Shown piece by piece: positions 51,742 to 64,000 of a DNA stretch of 64,000 nt (positions within the stretch are counted from its first letter, which is position 1; each line of letters starts with the position of its first letter). The notes under the pieces were generated by a model that saw only the letters and a list, made by a program, of their open reading frames with translations, was not told the origin of the DNA and made no database searches. Position numbers and translations under genes: made by a program. The DNA comes from Terracidiphilus sp. (GTDB taxonomy: Bacteria; Acidobacteriota; Terriglobia; Terriglobales; Acidobacteriaceae), in assembly GCA_049518955.1 (NCBI GenBank), contig JBEKRG010000003.1, positions 1,443-65,442 on the forward strand, given 5' to 3'.

Positions 51742-52131
51742 TTATATCTTTTTCTTCTTTTCGGATTTTTCCCGCTTGCGCTCGTGGATGTGGTTCGGAT
51801 TGTGGTAGATAGTGGACAAAGCAATCCGAGCGTCGGCCAGGCAATGCGTGGCTTCATTGTGCGTGACGACGCCCGTCATGGAAGCGTAGTTAATGCAGGC
51901 GATGAAGTCGCAGATGTTCCTGTAGCCGGAAAGCGAAGGCATGGCCTCGAGATAGGCTTTCTTGCCGGCCTTTTCGCAGTCCCGATCCGATGAGTCCTCA
52001 TCTTCAGCTTGCTCGTTATGGGCGCAGTTCCACGCGCTCATACCAATGTCGATGACCTGTTTGCCGGAGTCATTAGAAGGGGTTTGAGGCACGGCTGCGG
52101 TCGTGATTGCGGTAATGGCTTTGTATGCCAT
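51742..52131 (-). CDS. Hypothetical protein (129 aa)
   Basis: AAGGGG SD, helical core AYLEAMPSLSGYRNICDFIAC, Lys-rich tail. Confidence 0.65.
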   Translation of the reverse strand: MAYKAITAITTAAVPQTPSNDSGKQVIDIGMSAWNCAHNEQAEDEDSSDRDCEKAGKKAYLEAMPSLSGYRNICDFIACINYASMTGVVTHNEATHCLADARIALSTIYHNPNHIHERKREKSEKKKKI

Positions 52132-52502
52132 GAAGAATCCCCTTTCATCTTCAAGGCTAGCGATTTCGGCGAATTAATCGGCAAACTTGGGCAGATTTAT
52201 TTGCAGAGCGTAAGGGATGGAGGGGGAAGGGTTTAGTGCATGGGCGAACTCGTTTTGTCGGAGGTTGACTATTGACAGCGGAAATCAGGGGCGGGTCTTA
52301 GTGTGTTCTTTGTGACGATAGAGAACGTCCCGTCTGTCCCCGGGTTCCAATCGTTGCTGATCGCCAGGGCTCCGACTTAAAGGGGAAAAATGCTCGGCCA
52401 AACAGGCTATGCCTTGGCACTTGGCGACAGCGGTTTTCATTGACGGGACCTTGTTTGCACGATTATGCTTCCACCTAAAATTTCTCCCCCGTGGAGGTTC
52501 AC

Positions 52503-53138
52503 ATGTTGCCTCGGGCCTTGGCTGCGGTGTTGGCGCTTGCCTGGTTCACCTGCCGCGCTCAAACACCTGCCAGTCAGACTCGGGCCACCATCCCCTCTGT
52601 TGACGAAGCGATTCATGGCCTGTCGGTCCAGAGGGATAACGCCAAGCAGTATGTTCAGCTCGCGCGCGAGATCAAAGATCCGTCGGCGCGGGAGCAGGCG
52701 TGGCTGCTCTATAGTGAGGCCCGCGCGCAGTACAACGCCTTCATCGACGACATTGCCACTGGGATCGACATCGGGGGCAAGAACGAGAGTGAGGCGATGA
52801 AGCATGCGAACGACGCATACCACGCCGGGGCAACCTTCCAGCAATATGTGGAGACGCAGCGCGCCGCGCAGTCCCAGGACCATATGGGCGCGACGCCGCT
52901 CTCGGTTCTGCTGCCGGTGGGCAAGAGGCTTCTCGACGCCTTCCTTGGAATCACGCTGAAGCCCCCGGCCGCCGACACCAAAAAGCTGAACCTGATCAGC
53001 CGGGTAGAGGGCTACAAGTGGCCCGAGTGGCCCACATCGAATGTTGATCTATCTCCGGATACACCGATAGCGTCCCCAGGGACCGCCGTCCAGCCTACCA
53101 AGCCACCGACGCCAGACTCCGACCATCAGGGCCCATAG
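52503..53138 (+). CDS. Secreted, probably helical, hypothetical protein
   Basis: GGAGGT SD before ATG 52503, signal peptide ending CRA-Q, amphipathic helices, YKWPEW, Pro-rich tail. Confidence 0.7.
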   Translation: MLPRALAAVLALAWFTCRAQTPASQTRATIPSVDEAIHGLSVQRDNAKQYVQLAREIKDPSAREQAWLLYSEARAQYNAFIDDIATGIDIGGKNESEAMKHANDAYHAGATFQQYVETQRAAQSQDHMGATPLSVLLPVGKRLLDAFLGITLKPPAADTKKLNLISRVEGYKWPEWPTSNVDLSPDTPIASPGTAVQPTKPPTPDSDHQGP

Positions 53139-54501
53139 ACACGGCGGGTCCGCGCACCAGTCCCATGCTGCTGATCTGAATGGAGCAGAAGGCGGCGAAG
53201 GGCCGTCCGTCGAGCCGGTTGGACGAGGTGAAGGTGACGCTGGCGATGTAGGGTCCGTGCATGGTGAAGGTGTTTTCGGGGACTGCGCCCTTTTCTGCAG
53301 GGAAGGGCGGGATGTAGCGGATGAGATCCTCTCCGACGGGCTTGTCCTGAGGTATTTCCCGGCCATTCGGGTCGAAGGCGTGCGCCTCCCAGGAGGGATG
53401 GGTGATGCCGTTGCGGCTCTCGGCAAGCAGGCGGACGCGCGAAAAGGCGAACTGCTTGAGCGGCGGCGAGAAGTGCAGCGTGTATGACACGGATTCCACC
53501 TGATTGCAGGTGTCTCCGTCCTGATGGAGGATGATGGCTGCGCCGTTCTCTGAAAATCCCGAATAGACAACGCCTGGCTTCATGAGGCCAATGTGCGTTC
53601 CGGACGTGACGTTGTCGATGGTGATGCCGTATTTGGCGAGGTAGGGTGCGGCCGGGACGTCCTGCTGCCCGGGCTGAGCAATGAAATCCGGCCCGGCGTT
53701 CACGGCCTCGTGAAAGTCAATGTACTGAATGGGACTGTCCGGCGGGATGAGATAGGTGTAAGGGGGAACGGTGCCGAAGGTGACCGGATCGGCTGGGGGA
53801 TCTCCGTTTCTGGCGTCGTCATTGACTGTGCTGAAGATGGCTTCTACGTTCCAGACCTGACCGGCGGCGCCCTGGCGACTCATAGCGGCGAGCAGGTCAG
53901 GGACATAGGTGCTGGTGGCGTGGGCCAGTTCGCCGGAGCGTGTGGAGAAGGCGAGGTATTCGTTCCGGCCCGGTTCGGGCATGGGATAATTACTCGCGCC
54001 GGGGACGGCATCTGCGGAAGAACGGCAAGCGTTCACCACCACGACGGCGGCTTTGGCGTGGCGAGCTTCGAGGCGATCGAGGATGTCGGTCTTGAGCACA
54101 ATGCAGCACGAGCCCATGGAGTCGCCGGTCGCTGCGTCGACGGGTACCAAAAGACCCTCGACGCCGTGGCCGCTGTAGAAAACCCAGACGAGCGCGCCGG
54201 AGGGCACCTCGTCGATGAACCCTTTCAGCGCCTGCCGCATGGCTCCGATGTTCTGGTTGAGCAGCGGCCCTCCACCATAGACGCTAAAACCGAGAACACG
54301 CAGAGTTGAGGCCATTTGCATTGCCTGATCGAGGATGGCGGAGGGCAGCTTCGGCCAGAGACTGGTGTCCTGGTAATCGGCGTTGCCGATGACGATAGCG
54401 TAGCGAGGCTCGGGAGGGGCGGGCGGGGTCCAGGACTGGGCCGTTCCGAGGGGAGCGACCGCAAGCAGGGAGGCGCAGAGCGCCCGGACGCTGGTGTACA
54501 T
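53095..54501 (-). CDS. Secreted caspase-like (peptidase C14) protein with C-terminal beta-rich domain
   Basis: Signal peptide, YAIVIGNADY, FYSGHG (His), VVVVNACR (Cys), AFSTRSGELA. Confidence 0.82.
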   Translation of the reverse strand: MYTSVRALCASLLAVAPLGTAQSWTPPAPPEPRYAIVIGNADYQDTSLWPKLPSAILDQAMQMASTLRVLGFSVYGGGPLLNQNIGAMRQALKGFIDEVPSGALVWVFYSGHGVEGLLVPVDAATGDSMGSCCIVLKTDILDRLEARHAKAAVVVVNACRSSADAVPGASNYPMPEPGRNEYLAFSTRSGELAHATSTYVPDLLAAMSRQGAAGQVWNVEAIFSTVNDDARNGDPPADPVTFGTVPPYTYLIPPDSPIQYIDFHEAVNAGPDFIAQPGQQDVPAAPYLAKYGITIDNVTSGTHIGLMKPGVVYSGFSENGAAIILHQDGDTCNQVESVSYTLHFSPPLKQFAFSRVRLLAESRNGITHPSWEAHAFDPNGREIPQDKPVGEDLIRYIPPFPAEKGAVPENTFTMHGPYIASVTFTSSNRLDGRPFAAFCSIQISSMGLVRGPAVSMGPDGRSLASVAW

Positions 54502-54844
54502 GGCGGATCTCCGGGGACGTGAGTCAAGGTCTGGGCAGCATCTTGCGCCTGGGGCGGAAGATCAGGCAAGGGAAAAATCGCGTCCACGCTCTCGGAACTG
54601 ATAATGGCCCCCAGCGACACCCGTGGGAAAATGATTTCAGCCTGCGGCCCATGCGCTGCGCGGGTTCTCCTGCCGTGCCCTCGTTACAAGGAAATGCGCC
54701 GCGTGGGCGGGCACCCGGTTCCCGACAGAGTCGGCGGACCCCGATAATCTGATTAACTGTGCATCATACTTGCCGAACCGGTCACCGCGCTCATTGCGCA
54801 CCATCCATCGATTGCTACCGGTTAAACTGAACTCCAGCTAAGCC

Positions 54845-55516
54845 ATGAAAGATTCGATCCACGTTTCGAAAGAGAACTACCTCAAGGCCATTCTTGAAGC
54901 CGAGGCCGAAGGCCGCCAGGTGATTCCCGCAATGCTCGCGCATTGGCTTGAAGTCTCCGCGCCCGCCGTCACCATGGCGCTTAAGCGGCTCAAACGCGAT
55001 GGCTGCGTCAAGGTGGGCGATGACGGCATTGTGCGCCTCACAGCGGCTGGCCGCGAGATGGCTTACCACACCGCGCTGCGGCACCATCTAATTGAGCGCA
55101 TGTTGAGCGAGGTCTTCGGCATGGAGTGGCACGAGATTCACGAGGAAGCCGAGCGGCTGGAGCACGCGGTTTCGCCGGCCTTCGAAGCCAAGCTCAAAGA
55201 GAAGCTGGGCGAGGGCGGCGCCTGCCCGCACGGGAACTCCGTTCTTCCACTCAACCCGGCCGAAAGGAAAAAGAGGGGCGAAATGCAGCTCTCCCAGGCC
55301 GCCGCAGGCAAGCGCTACACCGTCATCAGCCTCCAGGAGCGCGATCCCAAGCTGCTCGAGTTTCTGCATGCCGCGGGCGTCGGGCCCGGCAAGAGTCTCC
55401 GCGTTACGAGCCAAAATTACGACCAAACTGTTTTGATTGACCTGCCTACAGGAAGCACCATTCTCGGCCGTCCGGCCGCCGAGGCGGTTTGGTTACGTCC
55501 GGAACGTTCATCGTAA
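54845..55516 (+). CDS. mntR: DtxR/MntR-family metal-dependent repressor with FeoA-like C-terminus
   Basis: ENYLKAI, VSAPAVTMALKRL, RHHLIERML, EAERLEH, CPHG. EAExLEH resembles the SloR/ScaR/TroR Mn-sensing subgroup. Confidence 0.88.
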   Translation: MKDSIHVSKENYLKAILEAEAEGRQVIPAMLAHWLEVSAPAVTMALKRLKRDGCVKVGDDGIVRLTAAGREMAYHTALRHHLIERMLSEVFGMEWHEIHEEAERLEHAVSPAFEAKLKEKLGEGGACPHGNSVLPLNPAERKKRGEMQLSQAAAGKRYTVISLQERDPKLLEFLHAAGVGPGKSLRVTSQNYDQTVLIDLPTGSTILGRPAAEAVWLRPERSS

Positions 55517-55517
55517 T

Positions 55518-55565
55518 TTAATCTAAAAGAAAAGATTAACCATACTTAACAAACTGTGGCATACT
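55518..55565 (+). promoter_or_regulatory. Candidate metalloregulator operator and extended -10 of the NRAMP-like operon
   Basis: TTAATCT-N8-AGATTAA IR (55518-55539), ATTAACCATACTTAA (55535-55549), TG-g-CATACT (55557-55565). Confidence 0.5.
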
Positions 55566-55746
55566 GGAGTTGAGGGGTGCTCGCGGCCTCTCAAGCGAAT
55601 GCCGCACTGTGACGGTTGCGCGCTGCCCGAGTTCTCTCCGGCGGAGCCAATGGAGCATGCACCGCGTTCGCGTTGGTCCGTTCTGCAAATGTTCACGTAA
55701 ACCGAAAAGAATTCCGCACCCAGAGTTGCCGAGGAATGCCAGGCCG

Positions 55747-57126
55747 ATGAATGCCAGCACAAAAATCGGTCCAGACCCTCCCATCGCAGTCGACGAAGTG
55801 GTCGTCACGCATGAGGACATGGATCGCGCTTACGACCGCTCGCGCGTGAGCGCGGCACGACGCTCGCCGGGATTGCGCGCGCACGTGTCGCTCCTTTGGC
55901 TGCTGGTGGGGCCGGGCATCCTTGTCATGCTGGGTGAGAACGACGGCCCGAGCATGCTTTCCTATGCCGCGACGGGCGCGAAGTTCGGCATCGGCTTTTT
56001 CCTTCCATTCGTGGCGCTCACTTTTGTGATGGCGCTGGTGGTTCAGGAGATGACGGTTCGGCTGGGCGCGGCCACTCATCGCGGCCACGCAGAGCTGATC
56101 TTCGAGCGGTTCGGCCCCTTCTGGGGCTGGTTCTCGATGATCGATCTCAGCTTAGGGAACTTTCTCACGCTGGTCACCGAGTTCATTGCTATCCGCGCCG
56201 GGTTCGGCTACTTCGGCGTGCCGCCGTGGGCCGCGGTTCTGGTGGCGCTCGTGGTGCTCTTTTCCGCGCTGCTGAGCCACCGCTACTGGACGTGGGAGCG
56301 CGTGACCCTGGCAGCCGCCGCATGCAACCTGGTCTTCGTGCCCATTGCTCTGATGGCTCACCCGCAATGGGGCGCGATTGGCCACGCAATGCTCACATGG
56401 ACGCCTATGCCTCACGCGAGCCAGGAGACTTTGCTGATCCTGCTCTCCGACATCGGCGCCACCGTCACACCGTGGATGCTTTTCTTCCAGCAGAGCGCCA
56501 CTGTGGACAAGGGCCTGACGACGAAAGACATTCGATTCGGGCGCATCGACACAGTGCTGGGCGCGGGGCTGGCCGCACTGGCTGCGCTCGGCGCAATCAT
56601 CGCCACCGCGCCGCTCTTTGGCCACATTGGGGCGGCCAATTTCGCGGCGGCGCAGTTCGCGCAGGCGCTGGAGCCGATCGTGGGGCACATCGGTTCGTCG
56701 CTGTTTGCGCTGGGGATGATCGAAGCCGGCATTGTTGCGTCGATCACCATTTCCACATCGTCGGCCTACGCATTCGGCGAGGTTGCGCGCCAGCCACACA
56801 GCCTGAATCTCCCGGTGAATCAGGGCAAGTCGTTTTACTTCGTGCTCTGTTTTTGTGCCGCGGCGGCGGCGGCCATCGTTCTGATTCCGAACCTGCCGCT
56901 CACCTTCGTGGTGCTTGTCGTGAATGTGGTTGCAGTTCTCGCCATGCCGCCGGCGCTGGTGTTCCTTTATCTGCTGGTCAACGACCCGCAAATCATGGGC
57001 GACGTGCGCAGCCCGCGGTGGGCTAATGTGCTTGCGGCGGGAGTTGTCGTGTTGCTCACGGCCGCCGGCGTGCTCTTCGGAATCAGCGTCGTCTTCCCGC
57101 GGGCGTTCGCGTGGCTGGGGAGCTAA
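55747..57126 (+). CDS. NRAMP/SLC11-related divalent metal transporter, NRMT (Mg/Mn)-like
   Basis: GPGILVMLGENDGPS, QEMTVRLG, GATVTPWMLFFQQS; about 11 TMs; start trimmed to ATG 55747. Confidence 0.88.
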   Translation: MNASTKIGPDPPIAVDEVVVTHEDMDRAYDRSRVSAARRSPGLRAHVSLLWLLVGPGILVMLGENDGPSMLSYAATGAKFGIGFFLPFVALTFVMALVVQEMTVRLGAATHRGHAELIFERFGPFWGWFSMIDLSLGNFLTLVTEFIAIRAGFGYFGVPPWAAVLVALVVLFSALLSHRYWTWERVTLAAAACNLVFVPIALMAHPQWGAIGHAMLTWTPMPHASQETLLILLSDIGATVTPWMLFFQQSATVDKGLTTKDIRFGRIDTVLGAGLAALAALGAIIATAPLFGHIGAANFAAAQFAQALEPIVGHIGSSLFALGMIEAGIVASITISTSSAYAFGEVARQPHSLNLPVNQGKSFYFVLCFCAAAAAAIVLIPNLPLTFVVLVVNVVAVLAMPPALVFLYLLVNDPQIMGDVRSPRWANVLAAGVVVLLTAAGVLFGISVVFPRAFAWLGS

Positions 57127-57135
57127 GGGGATCGA

Positions 57136-57342
57136 ATGGACGAATCAAAGCACATCACCGAAGAAGAAGTTGGCTGGGTTCTCCAGAACCTTGACCGGGA
57201 TCAGCTCGTCCAGGAGAAATCCGCGCCAGTTCCGCGCCGGCAACTGCGCGGCGGCGAGTTGTTGCTCGTATGGGCTCTGCGCATCTACCTGATCTTTATG
57301 ATGGCCGTCGTCTTGTGGCAGGCGTGGACTGCTGTGCGGTAG
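57136..57342 (+). CDS. Small single-TM protein (68 aa) in the NRAMP operon
   Basis: Starts 9 nt after the transporter stop with a GGGGA SD; C-terminal TM LLLVWALRIYLIFMMAVVLWQAW. Confidence 0.75.
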   Translation: MDESKHITEEEVGWVLQNLDRDQLVQEKSAPVPRRQLRGGELLLVWALRIYLIFMMAVVLWQAWTAVR

Positions 57343-57470
57343 GAGGCCGTAGCTTGAAAACGGCGCGGCTGCTGCTCAACAGCGTTCTCCATGTGGATTG
57401 ATTCGTCTGTCGGTGTGGTGGCGGCTAATTCTCCGAGGGCATCCCCATACTTCCCTGGAGGTTCAAAGCA

Positions 57471-60400
57471 ATGCGCAGAAGAACAAGCCGGTACGCTCTG
57501 GCCTTTTCACTCTTCTTAGCTTTGGTTAATTGCGGCGGGCTCGGCGCTCAAAGCGGGACGTCGAGCGCGATCTCGGGGACGGTGCGCGACATCTCGGGCG
57601 CTACAGTGGCCAACGCCGAGGTGAAGGCGACAGAAGTGGACACCAAGGCCACGCGCGCCGAACTGACCGACCCCGGCGGGCATTATCTTTTTTCCCAAGT
57701 CAATCCCGGCACCTACCAGGTAACGGTGCAAACGAACGGCTTTGCTGTTTCAACTTCTGCACCAACGCCTGTGGGCGTCGGCCGGACCGTCACGTTGAAC
57801 TTCTCGCTCCACGTCCAGACGGATAACCAGACAGTGGAGGTTACCGCGCAGCAGGGCTTGCTGACCCTCGATAATTCGAATACGACCACGACAATTGAAG
57901 CCCAGACCATCAAGAGTCTTCCCAATCCCGGTCAGGACCTGACTTATGTGGCGCAATTCGCGCAAGGCGCTCTGATGAATACGGCGGGATCCTCGAGCGA
58001 TGCGAAAGCCCCGGGCGGATACGGCAATGTCGAGTTTAACGGCCTGCCCGCGACTTCGAACGGCTACATTCTCGACGGCTACGATTCCAACGATCCCTGG
58101 CTCGGCCTGAATATTGGGCTCTCGACCAACCTCGTGATCGGGCTTGACGCCGTCGATCAGTCGACCGTGAACACCAATTCGTTCTCCGTCGATCAGGGCC
58201 GTTATGCCGTAGCCCAGGTCAACTACTTCACCAAATCGGGGACCAATGCGTTCCACGGCGACCTGTACGAGGTCTGGAACGGTTCGCTGTTCAACGCGGA
58301 GGATTATTTTCTCCACGCCAACGACTCGCCGGGGAACATCGCCAAAAAGCCGCGTTCTGTCGTCAATGAGTTCGGAGTGAGCGTGGGCGGGCCGATTCGC
58401 AAAGACAGGCTGTTCTTCTTCGGGCACTATGAGGGCATTCGGATCGCTTTGCCAATCGTGACGCCAACCACCCTGCCGACGCCCGCCTATCAGCAATATG
58501 TGCTCGGACAGCTTGCCACCGGCGGATATGATCCGGTCACAGGAAACAACCTTCAGGCGCAACCTGCGGAGATTCCATTCTATAAAAACATGTTCTCGCT
58601 CCTGCCGCCTCCCGGTGGGTCGCCGGTAGCGATCACAGCCTGCCCGCTGGACCCATCCGGGAACCTGTTGCCCGCTCCAACAAATGGCTCTCTGCTCGAC
58701 GGCAGCGGCTGCGCGTCCCAGCAGCAGCGGTCTCTGAACAACAGCGATAGCGAAAACCTGATCGTGGTGAAGATCGATCACACCATCAATGCCAAAGACA
58801 GCATCTGGTACCGTTTCCAGCAGGATACGGGTTTGCAGGCGGAGTTTACAGACCCCATCAACTCCATCTTTAATTCCTACTCGCCGCAACCGCAGCGCAC
58901 GCTGGTTGTCGGCTACACGCACATTTTCAGCCCAACCCTCGTGAATCAATTCAACCCAGGAGCGGACTGGTACTCGAGCATCTTCGAGCCGAACCACTAC
59001 GCACAGGTCGAGCAAAGGTTTCCCATCATGCTTACCTCGGGCAGCGACAGCGTGCCCTTCACGACCATCGGCGGTCTGAACGATACGTTTGCGCAGGGGC
59101 GCAAGGTGACGCAGTGGCAGATCAACGATAGCCTGACCTGGACGCGCGGTCTGCACACATTACATTTTGGCGTCAATACGCGCCGTGTCGATACCAGCGA
59201 CTACGACCTCGGAGAAGGCATCGTGCCGACCGTCGCTTACAACGACCTGGCGGAGTTCACGTATGGAGCCGCATATACCGCCCAGCAGAACTTCCCGGTC
59301 TCTTTGAAGGATCGGGTGGCCGTCGGCAATCTCGAATTCTATGGGATGGACACCTACAAGCCTTCAGCGAAGACGACCCTGACTTACGGCATGCGCGTCA
59401 CCTGGAACACCAACGTCACCAGCCCGCAGCGGCTCTTTGGCCGCATGGCCGGTTCCTTCCTTGACGCTTCGCATGAAACCAATCAGCCGCTGGATCAGGT
59501 CATCCTGGGCAACGTCCAAAACCTGTTCGCGGCAACGCCGCTGTTCATCTACCAGCCGCGCACGTCGATCGCTTATCAGCTTCTTCCGCATACCGTGGTT
59601 CATGCCGGTTTCGGCGTCTTTAACGACATCATCCCGCAGCAGATCGCCGACAACGGCCTGATCAACGCACCCAACGATCCCTCCTTCACGGGCGGTATCG
59701 GAGGACAGGTGGGCGGCCTGGGAATTGCCCCCGGAGTTGCCGGAAGCGCCGTGGACGCGGCAGCCAGGGCCAATGCGTTGTTCCAGACAACATTCAGCTC
59801 CGGCGGCACGCCCTGCGCGGGCATCCAGCCGGGCGCACCAACCTGTCCGCTGGCCGTCAGCCTGAACACTTTCCCGACCGGAACGCTCAAGACCCCGTAC
59901 TACTACCAATACAGTCTCGGAGTTGAGCAGCAGATCGGCTCGCGCGGCGACCTGCGCGCCGACTACGTAGGCACGCGTGGGCTGCACGAACCGTACCAGG
60001 TGCAGCTGAACGGCTACCAGAACGTTTGCGACGGGTGCTTTGCGCCGTTTCCTTATCGCCAGCCGCTCGATCAGAGGTTTGGGAACGTCACCGAATTCCA
60101 GACCGGCGCCAGCAGCGTCTACAACGGATTGCAGACCGTCTACACGCAGCAATGGGGCGGCTTGACGCTGCGCGCCAACTATTCTTTCAGCCACTGCCTG
60201 GACGAAGTATCGAATGGGGGCCTGCTGGCCTTCTCCACGCAAGGGCTGGAATCGCCGTTGCCCGGAGAATTAAGCCGGCAGTATGCCAGTTGCGACTACG
60301 ACGTGCGGAATAACCTCTCTGCATACGGGTTGTATCAGGTACCGTTTCGCTCCAGTCACTCATTCCTGCGCCAGGTGCTCGGGGGCTGGTCTTTTTCTGA

Positions 60401-61007
60401 GACAGGATTCCTTCACTCCGGCCTTCCCTTCAGCGTGTTGAGCCAGCCATATAGCGCCAATGGCAATGGCGTGCTGCAAGCGTACAACTCAGCGCAGACC
60501 ATCCAGTTCGCTGTGCCGAGTTATGCCAACCGGGTGCCCGGCGTGCCGATCTATCGCAAGACTCTCTATCCCGGCGTCACCATAGATGGAACGAAACAGT
60601 GGCTCAACCCCGACGCGTTCGTCTCGGTGGTCGATCCCACAACCGGCGCCTGTTATACCGGCGTACCGGGCGCGCAAAATGATAATCCAACCATCTGCCA
60701 GTTCGGCGACTCGGGCCGCAACTCGGTGCGCGGACCGCACTTCACCTATTCGGATATGTACATCACGAAGTCCTTTGCGATCCGGGAAGGAATCAGGCTG
60801 CGCATTGACGGACAATTGTTCAATGCATTCAACCACCCCAACTTCGCACTTCCCAGCACAGTGCAGGCCGGCGTACCCGGTTCGGTTCCGGCAAGATTCG
60901 GAACGCTGCAAAGTGTAGTGGCGCCGCCGACCGGGCTGCTCGGCGTGGGCTTGGGAGGGGACAGCTCGCCGCGAATGATCGCGTTTCAGGGACGGATCGA
61001 ATTCTGA
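57471..61007 (+). CDS. TonB-dependent receptor with N-terminal carboxypeptidase-regulatory-like domain (Oar-like, 1178 aa)
   Basis: GGAGGT SD, signal peptide, ISGTVRDISGATV...VNPGTYQVTV, TKSGTNAFHG, LFNAFNHPNF, terminal RIEF. Confidence 0.9.
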   Translation: MRRRTSRYALAFSLFLALVNCGGLGAQSGTSSAISGTVRDISGATVANAEVKATEVDTKATRAELTDPGGHYLFSQVNPGTYQVTVQTNGFAVSTSAPTPVGVGRTVTLNFSLHVQTDNQTVEVTAQQGLLTLDNSNTTTTIEAQTIKSLPNPGQDLTYVAQFAQGALMNTAGSSSDAKAPGGYGNVEFNGLPATSNGYILDGYDSNDPWLGLNIGLSTNLVIGLDAVDQSTVNTNSFSVDQGRYAVAQVNYFTKSGTNAFHGDLYEVWNGSLFNAEDYFLHANDSPGNIAKKPRSVVNEFGVSVGGPIRKDRLFFFGHYEGIRIALPIVTPTTLPTPAYQQYVLGQLATGGYDPVTGNNLQAQPAEIPFYKNMFSLLPPPGGSPVAITACPLDPSGNLLPAPTNGSLLDGSGCASQQQRSLNNSDSENLIVVKIDHTINAKDSIWYRFQQDTGLQAEFTDPINSIFNSYSPQPQRTLVVGYTHIFSPTLVNQFNPGADWYSSIFEPNHYAQVEQRFPIMLTSGSDSVPFTTIGGLNDTFAQGRKVTQWQINDSLTWTRGLHTLHFGVNTRRVDTSDYDLGEGIVPTVAYNDLAEFTYGAAYTAQQNFPVSLKDRVAVGNLEFYGMDTYKPSAKTTLTYGMRVTWNTNVTSPQRLFGRMAGSFLDASHETNQPLDQVILGNVQNLFAATPLFIYQPRTSIAYQLLPHTVVHAGFGVFNDIIPQQIADNGLINAPNDPSFTGGIGGQVGGLGIAPGVAGSAVDAAARANALFQTTFSSGGTPCAGIQPGAPTCPLAVSLNTFPTGTLKTPYYYQYSLGVEQQIGSRGDLRADYVGTRGLHEPYQVQLNGYQNVCDGCFAPFPYRQPLDQRFGNVTEFQTGASSVYNGLQTVYTQQWGGLTLRANYSFSHCLDEVSNGGLLAFSTQGLESPLPGELSRQYASCDYDVRNNLSAYGLYQVPFRSSHSFLRQVLGGWSFSETGFLHSGLPFSVLSQPYSANGNGVLQAYNSAQTIQFAVPSYANRVPGVPIYRKTLYPGVTIDGTKQWLNPDAFVSVVDPTTGACYTGVPGAQNDNPTICQFGDSGRNSVRGPHFTYSDMYITKSFAIREGIRLRIDGQLFNAFNHPNFALPSTVQAGVPGSVPARFGTLQSVVAPPTGLLGVGLGGDSSPRMIAFQGRIEF

Positions 61008-61201
61008 GGATGGCGGCCATGGGGCTTCCAAAAATGCGACTTGCCCCTCGGGAAAGAGTGCCGTTTCGGCGACTTATCCCGCGATGGGTTGCCTCGTGAG
61101 CCATCACACAGAGTAGTTATTGCGGGCCTTTTAGGGCCATGCTCCAATATCAGTACTTCTGTCGGCTCGGTCTCCCAAATCAAAGGACTGGGACCTGCTT
61201 G

Positions 61202-62284
61202 ATGAGCAACGCAATCCAAATCGAGGCTAGTGACACGGCCGTTTCATCCGGCTCACAAGGTCAGGCAGGTGTGGCCGATAGGGTCTATAAGGTTGTAGCT
61301 CCCGCTGGAGGTGCCAGCCATGAGGACCTGTACGGGTTCCGCACGGCCATGGCGCAGCCCGCGGCGGTTGAAGATCCTGAAGCTGCGGCAAATCAGGCCA
61401 AGTCCAAGCGGGCAGTCGCCATCCTTCCGATCCTGTTCATTCTCGTGCTTGGAGCGCTCGCCGCCCTCCTCATCCCCAAACTGACCAAGTCTAAGGCCCC
61501 GGCGCTTTACGTCGACCTTGGAACGCGCCGCTTCGATTCGGCGGGGCTGGGAGCCCGGCTTATAGCTCGCTGGGAAGGAACTACCGCCTACCAGCTTTAC
61601 ATCGATCCTCTTGATCCGCAGCAGACCGCCGGCTTTCAAGCCGTGACGGTGAATCCACCTCACCCGGTTTCAGTGGTCATTCGGCTCCTCGATTCCACAG
61701 GTGCCGTCGCCTGTCAGAAGGAAGTGGTGCTTCCGACTCCTGGCCCGACCGCAGGTTCTTCAGACTCATCCTCTTCGGACGCTCTGGCGCCAATGCAGAC
61801 CACCACCGGAGACACCGTACAGAATAATGCGGGTCCAGACGGACAAATAGCAGAGGTCACCATTACCGGCGGTCTCCCCTGTTCGCTAAAGCAGTATCAT
61901 AGCCTTGCAGCGTGGGAGTTCTTCACCAACTTTCCGTCGCTCGATGAGCAGGACGAGTGGCTGAAACATCACAAGCTCGGCGATGCCGCAAAGAACCGAA
62001 ACGGTCATGGCTCAGGCGGCGGTTTCGGATTCTCAGCCCGCGCCCTTCACTTGCCGGCCGCGATCGACGATGACGACGTGATTGTGGGCGACAACCCATC
62101 GCAGGGAACCATCGATACCCAGGGTGGGCGGGTTTTCTCGCTGGGACTTGCAGGAATGCGGAACCGCACGGCTGAATGGCAGGTGTTTCCCGCCGCCGTT
62201 CATTTTCACTGCGACAAGAACGGCGCCTGTGTCCTGACCCGGGTGAATTCGCGCACGACTCTCCAGGCGCGTTTGGTTAAGTAG
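61202..62284 (+). CDS. Single-pass membrane hypothetical protein
   Basis: TM ILPILFILVLGALAALLIP followed by a large Cys-containing extracytoplasmic region; no recognisable domain. Confidence 0.7.
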   Translation: MSNAIQIEASDTAVSSGSQGQAGVADRVYKVVAPAGGASHEDLYGFRTAMAQPAAVEDPEAAANQAKSKRAVAILPILFILVLGALAALLIPKLTKSKAPALYVDLGTRRFDSAGLGARLIARWEGTTAYQLYIDPLDPQQTAGFQAVTVNPPHPVSVVIRLLDSTGAVACQKEVVLPTPGPTAGSSDSSSSDALAPMQTTTGDTVQNNAGPDGQIAEVTITGGLPCSLKQYHSLAAWEFFTNFPSLDEQDEWLKHHKLGDAAKNRNGHGSGGGFGFSARALHLPAAIDDDDVIVGDNPSQGTIDTQGGRVFSLGLAGMRNRTAEWQVFPAAVHFHCDKNGACVLTRVNSRTTLQARLVK

Positions 62285-62345
62285 CTGGCCACACTTCAAC
62301 CTTGGCGGCCGTTTTCACTTAACTATTTCTAGTACGATGGTTGCG

Positions 62346-64000
62346 ATGCACGTCTTGTCCGCAGCCGAGATGCAGGCCTGCGATCGCGCCACTACGGAGC
62401 GGTTTGGGATTCCATCGATTCAATTAATGCGGGCGGCTTCTTCAGCCGTCGCGGCTTTCGTGCGTGAGCATTTCCCGATTGCACGACGAGTGACGGTCCT
62501 GTGCGGGCGCGGCAACAACGGCGGCGATGGCATGATGGCGGCTCGGCTCCTGGCCGACGCCGGACTCGCAGTGACGACGCTGTTGCTGGGAGCGCCCGAG
62601 CAACTGGCGGGCGACGCTGCCGTTGCGTGGACCGAACTGAACAGTCCGAAGCGCGGAAAAGTCCATATTGTTGCGAACGCCCAGGCCCTGGAACAGCACA
62701 TAAATGCGCTCGATGCGGATCTGATTGTGGACGCCGTACTCGGTACAGGATTCAAACCTCCGCTTAAAGGTTTGGCGCTCGCCGCTCGCGAATGGTTGCA
62801 GCGAAGTCACGCGCCAACTCTCGCTGTCGACTTGCCTTCCGGTTGGCCGGCCGATGAAACAAGCGCAACTGTGGCAGGGCCGGTTTTTCCCGCCGACGCC
62901 GTCATTACGTTCACCGCGCCCAAGTGCGCACATGTCTTTGGGCAATTGACGCGGCGCTGGGATCAACCGGTTGTCGTCGCTCCAATCGGCTCGCCGGATG
63001 AGGCCATCGTTTCAGCGCTCAGGCTGGATTGGGCCGGGTCGTCGCTGTCCTTGCCGCAGGCTCCGCGCCCTGCGGCGTCTAACAAGGGCAACTTCGGTCA
63101 CGTACTCGTAGTCGGCGGTACGTTCGGAACCGCCGGCGGCAAGGCTGGAGCCCCGGCAATGACATCTCTCGCAGCGCTGCGGGTGGGTGCTGGGCTAGTG
63201 ACGGCCGCGGTTCCCGCGCCGGCGCTGCAGGTTGTCTCATCGTTTGCGCCGGAACTTATGACTTGGCCGCTGGCGCCGACGCGAGCCGGCCAGATCTCAG
63301 CGAAGAATCTTGAGAAGAAGCAAATCGCATCATTGATCGCTGGAAAGACCGTACTGGCAATCGGGCCGGGCTTGGGTCAGGGCGCGGAAACGGCCAGATT
63401 CGTTACAGGACTCCTTGGCGCCACAACGATGCCGGCAGTCATCGATGCGGACGCGCTGAATATTCTTGCTGCGAAGCCGGCCCTGCTCAAGCGCCTGGCT
63501 AAAGGACGCTTTGTGGCGTTGACGCCTCATCCCGGCGAGATGGCTCGGCTGGCCGGAATCACCATTGCCGACGTTCGGGCTAACCGGCTCGAGACGGCGC
63601 GCGATTTTGCAAAGCGCATGGGTGTAACACTCGTCCTGAAGGGCGCACGGACACTCATTGCCCATCCCGATGGCCGCGTGGCGATCAACACTTCAGGGAA
63701 TCCGGGAATGGCCAAAGGCGGCAGCGGCGATCTGCTCACCGGGCTCATAGCGGGCCTGTTGGCGCAATATCCTCACAATCACGCGCAAGCCGTGGAGGCA
63801 GCGGTTTACTTGCATGGGCTTGCGGCGGATCTGGCCGTGCATCAAAGCGACGAACATACCTTGCTGGCCACCGATAGCCTGTCACAGCTGGCGCGAGCCT
63901 TTCAATCCCATGCGCACGATTTTGATGCGAATGGTAAAACCGGGTATGTTTGGTTGCAGGGGCATTGCGTCCAGTGGGATAATTGCGCCGCAACAGCCCT
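62346..64000 (+). CDS. nnr: Bifunctional NAD(P)H-hydrate epimerase/dehydratase (YjeF); no stop inside the window
   Basis: Manual translation: LCGRGNNGGDG, DAVLGTG, SNKGNFGHVLVVGG, IGPGLG, DADAL, TPHPGEM, GGSGDLLTG. Confidence 0.93.
   Translation, partial: MHVLSAAEMQACDRATTERFGIPSIQLMRAASSAVAAFVREHFPIARRVTVLCGRGNNGGDGMMAARLLADAGLAVTTLLLGAPEQLAGDAAVAWTELNSPKRGKVHIVANAQALEQHINALDADLIVDAVLGTGFKPPLKGLALAAREWLQRSHAPTLAVDLPSGWPADETSATVAGPVFPADAVITFTAPKCAHVFGQLTRRWDQPVVVAPIGSPDEAIVSALRLDWAGSSLSLPQAPRPAASNKGNFGHVLVVGGTFGTAGGKAGAPAMTSLAALRVGAGLVTAAVPAPALQVVSSFAPELMTWPLAPTRAGQISAKNLEKKQIASLIAGKTVLAIGPGLGQGAETARFVTGLLGATTMPAVIDADALNILAAKPALLKRLAKGRFVALTPHPGEMARLAGITIADVRANRLETARDFAKRMGVTLVLKGARTLIAHPDGRVAINTSGNPGMAKGGSGDLLTGLIAGLLAQYPHNHAQAVEAAVYLHGLAADLAVHQSDEHTLLATDSLSQLARAFQSHAHDFDANGKTGYVWLQGHCVQWDNCAATA

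Follow-up and report, generated by a model that had tools for sequence, protein, structure and literature searches.

Manganese uptake systems that involve the outer membrane have been described in only a few bacteria. In Stenotrophomonas maltophilia, an MntR module reported in 2026 comprises mntR, mntH and a TBDR-pTFP operon controlled by an MntR box (PMC13217887). Burkholderia thailandensis possesses MnoT, a TonB-dependent Mn transporter fed by TseM, a type VI secretion system (T6SS) effector (Si et al. 2017; PMC9334652), and Bradyrhizobium japonicum possesses MnoP, a channel of the outer membrane that is regulated jointly with mntH (Hohle et al. 2011; PMC9334652). Here we analysed a stretch of 64,000 nucleotides (hereafter the window) from Terracidiphilus sp. 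(assembly GCA_049518955.1, contig JBEKRG010000003.1, positions 1,443 to 65,442 of the forward strand), which carries genes for a DtxR/MntR-family regulator, a transporter of the NRAMP family related to the NRMT branch, a membrane microprotein and a TonB-dependent-receptor-like outer-membrane protein (Table 1). We consider it probable, with some reserve, that the four genes, carried by a Terracidiphilus-like acidobacterium, form a transcription unit for the uptake of manganese. The open reading frame (ORF) coordinates agree with the initial annotation of the window, which had described four co-oriented genes separated by gaps of 230, 9 and 128 base pairs (bp). The window genome (G000) comprises 4.95 Mb in 234 contigs, with a completeness of 97% and a G+C content of 60%, and the source names of the orthologues are those of Terracidiphilus or Acidobacteriaceae metagenome-assembled genomes (MAGs).

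Exchange of the importer gene under a single operator

The orthologue of the regulator gene (79-88% identical) precedes canonical mntH in 12 congeneric genomes; the product of this mntH carries the DPGN and MPH motifs, matches ScaDMT (5m95) with E=1e-119 and scores approximately 430 bits against the Pfam Nramp model. A survey of 61 related genomes found canonical MntH beside the regulator in almost every species of the genus; it was absent from the window genome and from its relative G036, both of which carry the NRMT-like gene. In a neighbouring family, six of the seven genomes bearing the NRMT-like gene are also devoid of MntH. The NRMT-like gene and mntH are almost mutually exclusive: among the 61 genomes, MntH was absent from eight and present in one of those with the NRMT-like gene, and absent from three and present in 49 of those without it (Fisher p=4.8e-7).

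Both ends of the exchanged segment can be followed by alignment with the mntH loci of relatives. At the left junction, the promoter and the hairpin are shared with the mntH loci, to which the NRMT-type loci add a leader of approximately 170 nucleotides (nt). At the right junction, the last 70 bp or so before the receptor ATG correspond in the alignment to the 3' end of mntH and to the mntH-receptor spacer of the relatives; a relic of the mntH stop codon precedes the receptor gene (GGCGGCTAA in the window, GGCGGTTGA in the relatives), together with the old spacer and its GGAGG. The two junction alignments thus indicate that the NRMT-like gene and the microprotein gene took over the site of the mntH coding sequence, which was lost from it. 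A scan with one genome per species returned at least 530 relatives of the window NRAMP, mostly from Terriglobales MAGs. Among the best 80 of them, 77 came from MAGs of Terriglobales or other Acidobacteriota and two from Verrucomicrobiota bins, and a regulator of the type found in the window (reg(i), 55-99% identical) was encoded upstream in 60, in co-orientation and within 700 bp in 54. These data are in agreement with a history in which the ancestral locus of the genus would have consisted of the regulator, canonical mntH and the receptor, mntH would have been swapped in situ in the window lineage for a cassette of NRMT-like and microprotein genes common in other Terriglobales, and the receptor would later have been deleted in some sister species.

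The transporter (202 bits against Pfam Nramp) belongs to the NRMT branch, as the initial annotation had proposed. In a search of the PDB it matched EleNRMT (7qia; 438 residues, 11 transmembrane (TM) segments) with E=1.2e-53, residues 47-443 covering residues 36-432 of the chain, against 4.7e-13 for the best canonical NRAMP, DraNramp. Its metal site reads D66-G-P-S69 in TM1 and A238-T-V-T241 in TM6, followed by P-W, and this DxxS/AxxT site does not vary among eight orthologues belonging to two families. According to the signatures published for TM1/TM6 (PMC8806188), canonical NRAMPs carry DxxN/AxxM, NRAT carries DxxN/AxxT and NRMT carries DxxG/TxxA-T; the window transporter departs from the NRMT signature at two of the four positions. 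It also reads NDGPS and TPW in place of the canonical MntH motifs DPGN (TM1) and MPH (TM6). In EleNRMT, the T224A substitution is reported to abolish Mg2+ transport and to leave Mn2+ transport nearly intact (PMC8806188). The equivalent of Thr224 in the window transporter is Ala238, and the natural presence of alanine at this position leads us to predict that Mg2+ transport is absent. Segment TM6b (P-W-M-L-F-F-Q-Q) resembles that of EleNRMT and is devoid of the canonical histidines (M-P-H...H), so that proton coupling is probably absent as well. From these residues and from the replacement of mntH, we infer that the transporter carries Mn2+ and not Mg2+.

The initial annotation had favoured a Mg-type NRAMP, in which case an NRMT-type Mg2+ importer and its receptor would provide energised Mg uptake in cation-poor acidic habitats. 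The overall similarity to EleNRMT, which transports both Mg2+ and Mn2+, the TM6b segment, which is unlike that of canonical NRAMPs, and the occurrence of related microproteins beside Mg-type paralogues all point in that direction. We nevertheless find this proposal hardly credible, given that the site is DxxS/AxxT and not DxxG/TxxA-T, that alanine occupies the T224A position, that no M-box was found, that the regulator is of the DtxR family with Mn-type ligands, that the transporter gene replaces and excludes mntH, and that distinct Mg-type NRMT paralogues linked to mgtC exist in other species of the genus. What stands of the uptake route from outer membrane to cytoplasm proposed for Mn or Mg is a metal module, with Mn as the metal; the comparative evidence does not support the Mg part.

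The regulator contains the three domains of the DtxR/MntR family, Fe_dep_repress (PF01325), Fe_dep_repr_C (PF02742) and FeoA (PF04023), all above the Pfam cut-offs, and reg(i) is the sole DtxR-family gene found in the window genome. Its score against the NCBIfam MntR equivalog model was 108.8 bits for a cut-off of 350, and the DtxR model gave an equal score, likewise far below its cut-off. In an alignment with PDB chains, the segments KENYLK and EAERLEH of the regulator correspond to TEMYLR and EACRWEH of DtxR/IdeR, the counterparts in Mycobacterium tuberculosis (Mtb) MntR (5zr4) being QDYLK and EAEVLEH. The position of Cys102 of DtxR is thus occupied by Glu, as in Mtb MntR, and that of Met10 by Asn, which is neither Met nor Asp (Mn sensors: Asp/Glu). 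These ligand positions favour Mn as the effector without proving it. Together with the domain architecture, they support the earlier assignment of a DtxR/MntR-like repressor of the Mn-sensing type.

Just past the stop codon of the regulator gene, an AT-rich inverted repeat (TTAATCT/AGATTAA, 55518-55539) overlaps a 14-bp palindrome-like candidate operator, TTAACCATACTTAA (55536-55549), which spans a -35-like TTAACC and is followed by a -10-like CATACT at 55560-55565. The strict pattern TTAAC-N4-[GC]TTAA has a single match in the 4.95-Mb genome, and this match is the transporter promoter (layout TTAAC-N4-CTTAA). The operator and promoter stand in register upstream of both the NRMT-like genes and the canonical mntH of relatives, and in distant Terriglobales the operator core reads TTAACyATAGTTwA, a clearer palindrome. 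Since one strict operator and one DtxR-family gene were found in the genome, the predicted regulon is this single promoter. The streptococcal PsaR operator presumably has the same TTAAC-N4-CTTAA layout, which we take as a lead only. Upstream of the regulator gene itself only a half-site, TAATCTGATTAAC, was seen at approximately 54746; it is not conserved in G036 and we do not claim autoregulation. Just past the -10, a leader hairpin (55570-55594) keeps its pairing through compensatory changes across relatives, and beyond this hairpin the leader is shared only by the NRMT-type loci of close relatives. The start of the NRAMP gene was taken as the first ATG, at 55747, the mechanical ORF beginning with TTG at 55570. 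A scan of positions 52000-64000 against Rfam gave no match at E<=1, M-box and yybP-ykoY included, and the M-box-like fragments previously suspected in the leader are not retained.

The 68-aa microprotein has no Pfam family. Its N-terminal half is acidic; a basic RRxL motif comes next, then a single TM helix with W-x-L-R-x-Y-V/L-x-x-M, and its gene follows the transporter stop codon with an AGGGGA Shine-Dalgarno sequence in the 9-bp gap. In 77 of the best 80 loci it follows the NRMT-like gene, which supports the earlier view of it as a real gene. The Mg-type NRMT paralogues are followed by a related protein of 74-75 aa with the same L-R-x-Y-L-x-x-M helix. A profile built from both groups collected 1572 database proteins; no Pfam family matches any of them, and among the 120 listed no name was informative. 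The family accompanies NRMTs of both presumed specificities, which is more readily expected of a structural subunit than of a metal-specific regulator, and a physical complex of the microprotein with the transporter may be expected on these grounds. EleNRMT, with its 11 TM segments, is reported to be active alone in liposomes, so that such a partner is not universally required (PMC8806188).

Some further observations concern the transporters and the spacers. In other species of the genus and in a sister family, a Mg-type NRMT subfamily has NDAGA in TM1 and GTTIAPW in TM6, near the true NRMT signature; its operons (Table 1) contain the NRMT gene, that of the 74-75-aa microprotein and then MgtC or an OprB-family porin, and seem to mirror the Mn module on the Mg side, with an inner-membrane NRAMP and an outer-membrane protein. 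An element TGTCATCCTGAGCG(A/G)AG...GAAGGA(T/C)C, which looks like a repetitive extragenic palindromic (REP) sequence or a miniature inverted-repeat transposable element (MITE), recurs in the spacers between the regulator and NRMT genes of many Sulfotelmatobacter-like and Acidobacteriaceae MAGs (e.g., L075, L087, L092, L093, L105, L119, L120 and L123). Upstream of the regulator gene, G036 presents three tandem units of approximately 90 bp (L032:10636-10900; TCATGGGAGAACTTACCTCCCTCGAAACAGTG...CATGTCTCAGAAGCGAGACATGGGG...) instead of the sequence of the window, and its ORFs further upstream also differ from those of the window. One strict operator-like sequence in G026, close to where the receptor gene starts, falls within the signal-peptide coding sequence, inside the conserved L-T-x-V-N codons, and is therefore a coding coincidence.

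Genomic contexts of the receptor

Seen from the transporter, the receptor is rare. It lies downstream of the window NRAMP type in four of 89 loci (G000, L064, L065 and L067) and within 6-8 kb downstream in none of the 82 other NRMT-like loci. In three of the seven loci of the window's subclade (G036, L068 and L069), the microprotein gene is followed directly by a gene for a 381-aa protein and the receptor is gone; G036 keeps the spacer upstream of the receptor up to approximately its start codon and its sequence resumes past the receptor end, which indicates a deletion. As the genome holds approximately 45 genes of the receptor family by profile search, the probability that such a receptor stands there as a chance neighbour is not negligible, in the order of a few per cent, and conservation must decide. 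This transporter-centred synteny had led us to consider the receptor as a lineage-specific insertion devoid of conservation, a candidate explanation that was overturned by synteny centred on the receptor.

The receptor orthologues are 65-95% identical and form a well-separated orthogroup, the nearest paralogue in the same genome failing the threshold of E=1e-150. In 20 of the 21 copies of this orthogroup, a DtxR-family regulator gene adjoins the receptor gene or the receptor gene shares an operon with an NRAMP-family gene. In the remaining copy (G023), whose contig ends approximately 700 bp upstream, an operator and promoter of type A immediately precede the receptor. The receptor adjacency is not due to chance, as shown by this conservation of the neighbourhood seen from the receptor side. 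Three architectures were distinguished (Table 1). In type A, the gap between mntH and the receptor gene is 23-57 bp (G014, G016, G028, G030, G032, G031 and L153/L154), or 149 bp in L152. In type B, the receptor gene is divergent from that of a second regulator, reg(ii), which shares 33-36% identity with reg(i), and the shared spacer contains two TTAGGnnnnnCCTAA-like palindromes (TTAGG..CCTAA); a second mntH starts 3-13 bp past the receptor in G005 and G021, and the regulator gene of L156 is present though it was not called. Among solved structures, reg(ii) is nearest to DR2539 (8pvt, E=2e-38), a Deinococcus manganese sensor and mntH repressor, and then to Mtb MntR, ScaR and SloR. Both regulator types have Glu at the Cys102 position and Asn at the Met10 position.

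Types A and B are intermingled in a maximum-likelihood tree built from 16 receptors, and well-supported branches force at least three switches of architecture. Such a repeated placement beside Mn-type regulators and mntH, in varied order and orientation, argues for a receptor functionally tied to both, and we judge from these comparisons that its tie to the Mn regulon is real. The receptor is linked to DtxR-regulated NRAMP loci in general and not to the NRMT type. The co-conservation of receptor and NRAMP gene anticipated by the initial annotation therefore holds as a link to a DtxR-family regulator or NRAMP-family gene in all 21 copies (G023 by its operator), and fails for the NRAMP type of the window itself, as the four of 89 loci and the losses in the subclade indicate.

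The receptor protein has a signal peptide, a CarboxypepD_reg domain (residues 34-113), a motif typical of the plug-barrel junction, a barrel domain and a C-terminal Phe. The barrel, expected of TonB-dependent receptors, matches OMP_b-brl_4 (PF25183) with 460 bits over residues 254-1149, a model that also matches the control genomes of E. coli, Caulobacter and Bacteroides. In a set of 41 orthologues, the stretch QTVEVTA at residues 120-126, which we take to resemble the TonB-box consensus, shows no variation at Q120 and V124 and almost none at V122, E123 and A126. Among the orthologues listed, two bear the NCBI name "TonB-dependent receptor". The protein is thus best described as TonB-dependent-receptor-like; energised transport, dependence on TonB and Mn as the substrate are suggested by these features and by the genomic context. 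Several observations weigh against this interpretation. The Plug domain (PF07715), at its expected position (136-247), scores 17 bits (E=0.009) for a cut-off of 23.9; sequence and profile searches gave no PDB relative of the receptor; a comparison with E. coli FepA by hhalign aligned 17 columns at the plug-barrel junction motif with negligible probability; and an AlphaFold2 model from 41 orthologues of low diversity reached a mean pLDDT of 35. Against its place in the unit, the receptor is dispensable, being absent from most species of the genus (approximately 14 of 37 genomes have it), and in the window genome it is preceded by a 128-bp gap with no operator of its own.

Several of these points would also be expected if the receptor were an unrelated neighbour, an importer of glycans or another nutrient, as most of its approximately 45 paralogues would be, with its own transcription and a merely historical link to the locus. 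The abundance of its family in the genome, its absence from most mntH loci of the genus, the deletions in the subclade, and some downstream genes of type B loci with no evident metal role (tannase, OprB porin) would fit such a receptor. We consider this quite improbable, since nearly all copies adjoin a DtxR-family gene or share an operon with mntH and the last one stands behind the type A operator, since the three architectures have been exchanged at least three times, since the gaps to mntH are 3-57 bp in most operon-type loci, and since no promoter-like site was seen in the spacer.

Other features were noted around the receptor in related genomes. The neighbours in type B loci include an OprB porin and a Ferritin_2-like protein (L063:6433-7866, corresponding to G026; L155:8979-9848), and one metagenome contig of this type (L156:8645-13480) encodes a P-type ATPase, a CsoR/RcnR-like repressor, a Fur-family protein and a ZIP transporter, a wider metal-homeostasis neighbourhood. 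The reading frame of the receptor orthologue is broken into two in L064 (2873-6405) and into four in G016 (L058:7468-11010), which may be real pseudogenes or long-read frameshift errors; the split frames and the clean deletions of G036, L068 and L069, taken jointly, suggest that the receptor is often lost.

Proposed mechanism, choice of metal and surroundings

The spacer before the receptor gene consists of the 3' flank of the cassette fused to the old mntH-receptor spacer. No promoter-like or terminator-like site was detected in its 128 bp; its fold is no more stable than that of shuffled sequences (z=+1.0) and it has no U tract. Co-transcription of the receptor with the transporter is therefore plausible. 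Given that the operator is single in the genome, control of the receptor by Mn would require read-through from the promoter at 55536-55565. We propose that, when Mn2+ is sufficient, the DtxR-family repressor would occupy the single TTAAC-N4-CTTAA operator, which overlaps the -35 of a promoter beginning just past the repressor's own stop codon. Under Mn2+ scarcity, this promoter would drive the expression of the NRAMP, of its 68-aa partner and, by read-through, of the receptor. The receptor would then take Mn, free or chelated, across the outer membrane, and the NRAMP, probably with the microprotein and probably with no proton coupling, would move Mn2+ across the inner membrane.

The same unit could in principle serve iron, or iron and manganese together, with a regulator sensing Fe2+, a receptor for iron chelates or Fe2+ and an NRAMP carrying Fe2+. 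The regulator matches IdeR (7b1v, 2.5e-26) and Mtb MntR (4.2e-26) equally well, as it does the two NCBIfam models, and the type B loci contain tandem TTAGGTTAGCCTAA-like boxes, which we take to resemble the DtxR/IdeR iron box. TonB-dependent receptors are the classical importers of iron chelates, and a Ferritin_2-like gene follows the receptor in L155. The title of the work on DR2539 (PMC3327659) presents it as a dual Mn(II)/Fe(II) repressor. Sensors of the DtxR family can respond to Fe2+ too. The Glu and Asn found at the Cys102 and Met10 positions of both regulator types, on the contrary, favour a Mn-responsive pattern; the partner importer in relatives is canonical MntH; a regulon of one operator is unlike a typical iron regulon; and the ORF and Pfam annotation revealed no siderophore, ABC-importer or TonB-ExbBD genes in the four-gene unit. 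An iron function is consequently unlikely in our judgement, and manganese remains the effector and substrate that we prefer.

A broader proposal, somewhat doubtful when all its parts are taken jointly, may be put forward tentatively: (i) the receptor orthogroup, within a structurally unsolved acidobacterial class, would be a TonB-energised importer dedicated to Mn; (ii) the DxxS/AxxT branch would be a proton-uncoupled Mn2+ importer, forming a heteromer with a hitherto unrecognised membrane subunit of 66-78 aa; and (iii) this branch would have taken the place of MntH in much of Terriglobales, one possible reason being that proton-coupled uptake becomes a drawback when the external pH is low.

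The coordinates of the locus, the receptor architectures and the Mg-type operons are collected in Table 1. Beyond the receptor, positions 61139-62284 (+ strand) encode the 381-aa protein mentioned above, with one predicted TM segment and no Pfam family. Its gene is kept in the genus between the receptor (or microprotein) gene and the NAD(P)HX repair gene nnr, a further downstream neighbour identified by Pfam; its product diverges fast (33-88% identity, against 64-91% for nnr). On the other side, divergent from the regulator gene, positions 53095-54501 (- strand) encode a 468-aa protein with a signal-like N-terminus, a Peptidase_C14 (caspase) domain and a C-terminal half with no family; the position of this gene is not conserved in relatives.

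Table 1. Elements of the four-gene locus in the window, and loci of related genomes compared with it.
Feature	Location	Strand	Basis or arrangement
reg(i), DtxR/MntR-family metalloregulator, 223 aa	54845..55516	+	helix-turn-helix, dimerisation/metal domain, C-terminal FeoA/SH3-like domain; Pfam
Candidate operator and promoter region	55518..55565	+	window sequence; conservation in relatives
Leader, approximately 180 nt	55566..55746	+	alignment with relatives
NRMT-related NRAMP, 459 aa	55747..57126	+	Pfam Nramp; EleNRMT similarity
Single-pass membrane microprotein, 68 aa	57136..57342	+	ORF; TM helix; conservation
Microprotein-receptor spacer with mntH relic	57343..57470	+	alignment to mntH-receptor junctions of relatives
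TonB-dependent-receptor-like outer-membrane protein, 1178 aa	57471..61007	+	Pfam barrel; signal peptide; C-terminal Phe
Type A	G014, G016, G028, G030, G031, G032, L152, L153/L154, G000, L064, L065, L067		reg(i), then mntH or NRMT + microprotein, then receptor
Type B	G005, G021, G020, G026, G017, G014 contig 2, L155, L156		divergent reg(ii), receptor
Third architecture	G023		receptor behind type A operator/promoter; regulator + mntH on another contig
Mg-type NRMT operons	L040:7954-10238, L041:7479-10064, L042:6048-9483, L043:7919-11032		same-genus and sister-family genomes

Significance and comparison with known systems

Acidobacteria are among the most abundant soil bacteria and possess dozens of such receptor-like proteins per genome. 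To our knowledge, almost no large receptor-like outer-membrane protein of this phylum has a known substrate, and one orthogroup tied to the Mn regulon would provide a concrete and testable assignment. The transporter illustrates that similarity to NRMT does not make a Mg transporter, as a large Terriglobales branch has the substitution that abolishes Mg2+ transport in EleNRMT and stands in for MntH. The microprotein represents an unannotated family of more than 1500 sequences beside NRMT-family genes, and may be a missing subunit for structural and transport studies that have so far dealt with the transporter alone. The in-place swap of the importer under one operator is a clean case for the study of transporter replacement.

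The architecture had initially been regarded as uncharacterised, a claim that is partly outdated, since MnoT and the Stenotrophomonas module of mntH with a TonB-dependent receptor are already known (PMC13217887). The Stenotrophomonas module resembles the predicted unit of the window in its clustering of a Mn-responsive repressor, an NRAMP importer and a TonB-dependent receptor, in an operator placed between the -35 and the -10 of the promoter, and in a receptor that is accessory and lineage-restricted, and its receptor has a CQNC plug motif and a thioredoxin-fold partner (PMC13217887). The window receptor, in contrast, has no cysteine in residues 114-254, where a motif of the CQNC type would lie, and no thioredoxin-fold partner; it belongs to the acidobacterial class with CarboxypepD_reg and OMP_b-brl_4 domains, with an extra N-terminal domain and no solved relative. 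It also lies in the predicted operon of the importer, the regulator has a C-terminal FeoA/SH3-like domain, and the importer is NRMT-related and accompanied by a microprotein. MnoP is reportedly a passive channel under a Fur-family regulator, whereas the window has a receptor-like outer-membrane protein and a regulator of the DtxR family; in related genomes, OprB-type porins are encoded downstream of the Mg-type NRMT paralogues and, in G026, of the receptor. The likeness with MnoP would reside in an outer-membrane route for Mn2+ paired with an NRAMP under a Mn-responsive regulator, and that with MnoT in TonB-dependent uptake of Mn across the outer membrane under Mn scarcity (PMC9334652). MnoT, compared here by its description only, obtains Mn from a secreted Mn-binding protein, whereas neither such a partner nor a T6SS gene is found at the window locus.

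Among transporters, EleNRMT and CabNRMT (PMC8806188, PMC4072509) are the closest, EleNRMT being the best structural relative, with the same P-W...Q-Q in TM6b. The window transporter differs from them by its DtxR-family control in place of an M-box, by its DxxS/AxxT site and by the Ala at the Thr224 position. A conserved downstream microprotein is found here, and none is mentioned in the parts of the EleNRMT and CabNRMT accounts considered (PMC8806188, PMC4072509). The regulator shares with Mtb MntR (5zr4), DR2539 (8pvt), ScaR and SloR the domain architecture, the Glu at the Cys102 position and an NRAMP or Mn importer gene as the repressed target, which is predicted in the case of the window. 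It is only 30-40% identical to these Mn-responsive repressors, with Asn and not Asp at the Met10 position, and its effector is likewise predicted. The enterobacterial MgtS, MgtR and MntS are small membrane proteins that modulate cation transporters, and the window microprotein resembles them in its size (less than 80 aa), in being encoded beside a transporter of divalent cations and in its presumed action on that transporter. It has no sequence similarity to them, and its translational linkage to the transporter and its conservation across two NRMT subfamilies fit a stoichiometric subunit better than a conditional regulator. Relative to the known systems, the locus differs by its receptor class, the putative importer-receptor operon, the NRMT-related importer and the microprotein.

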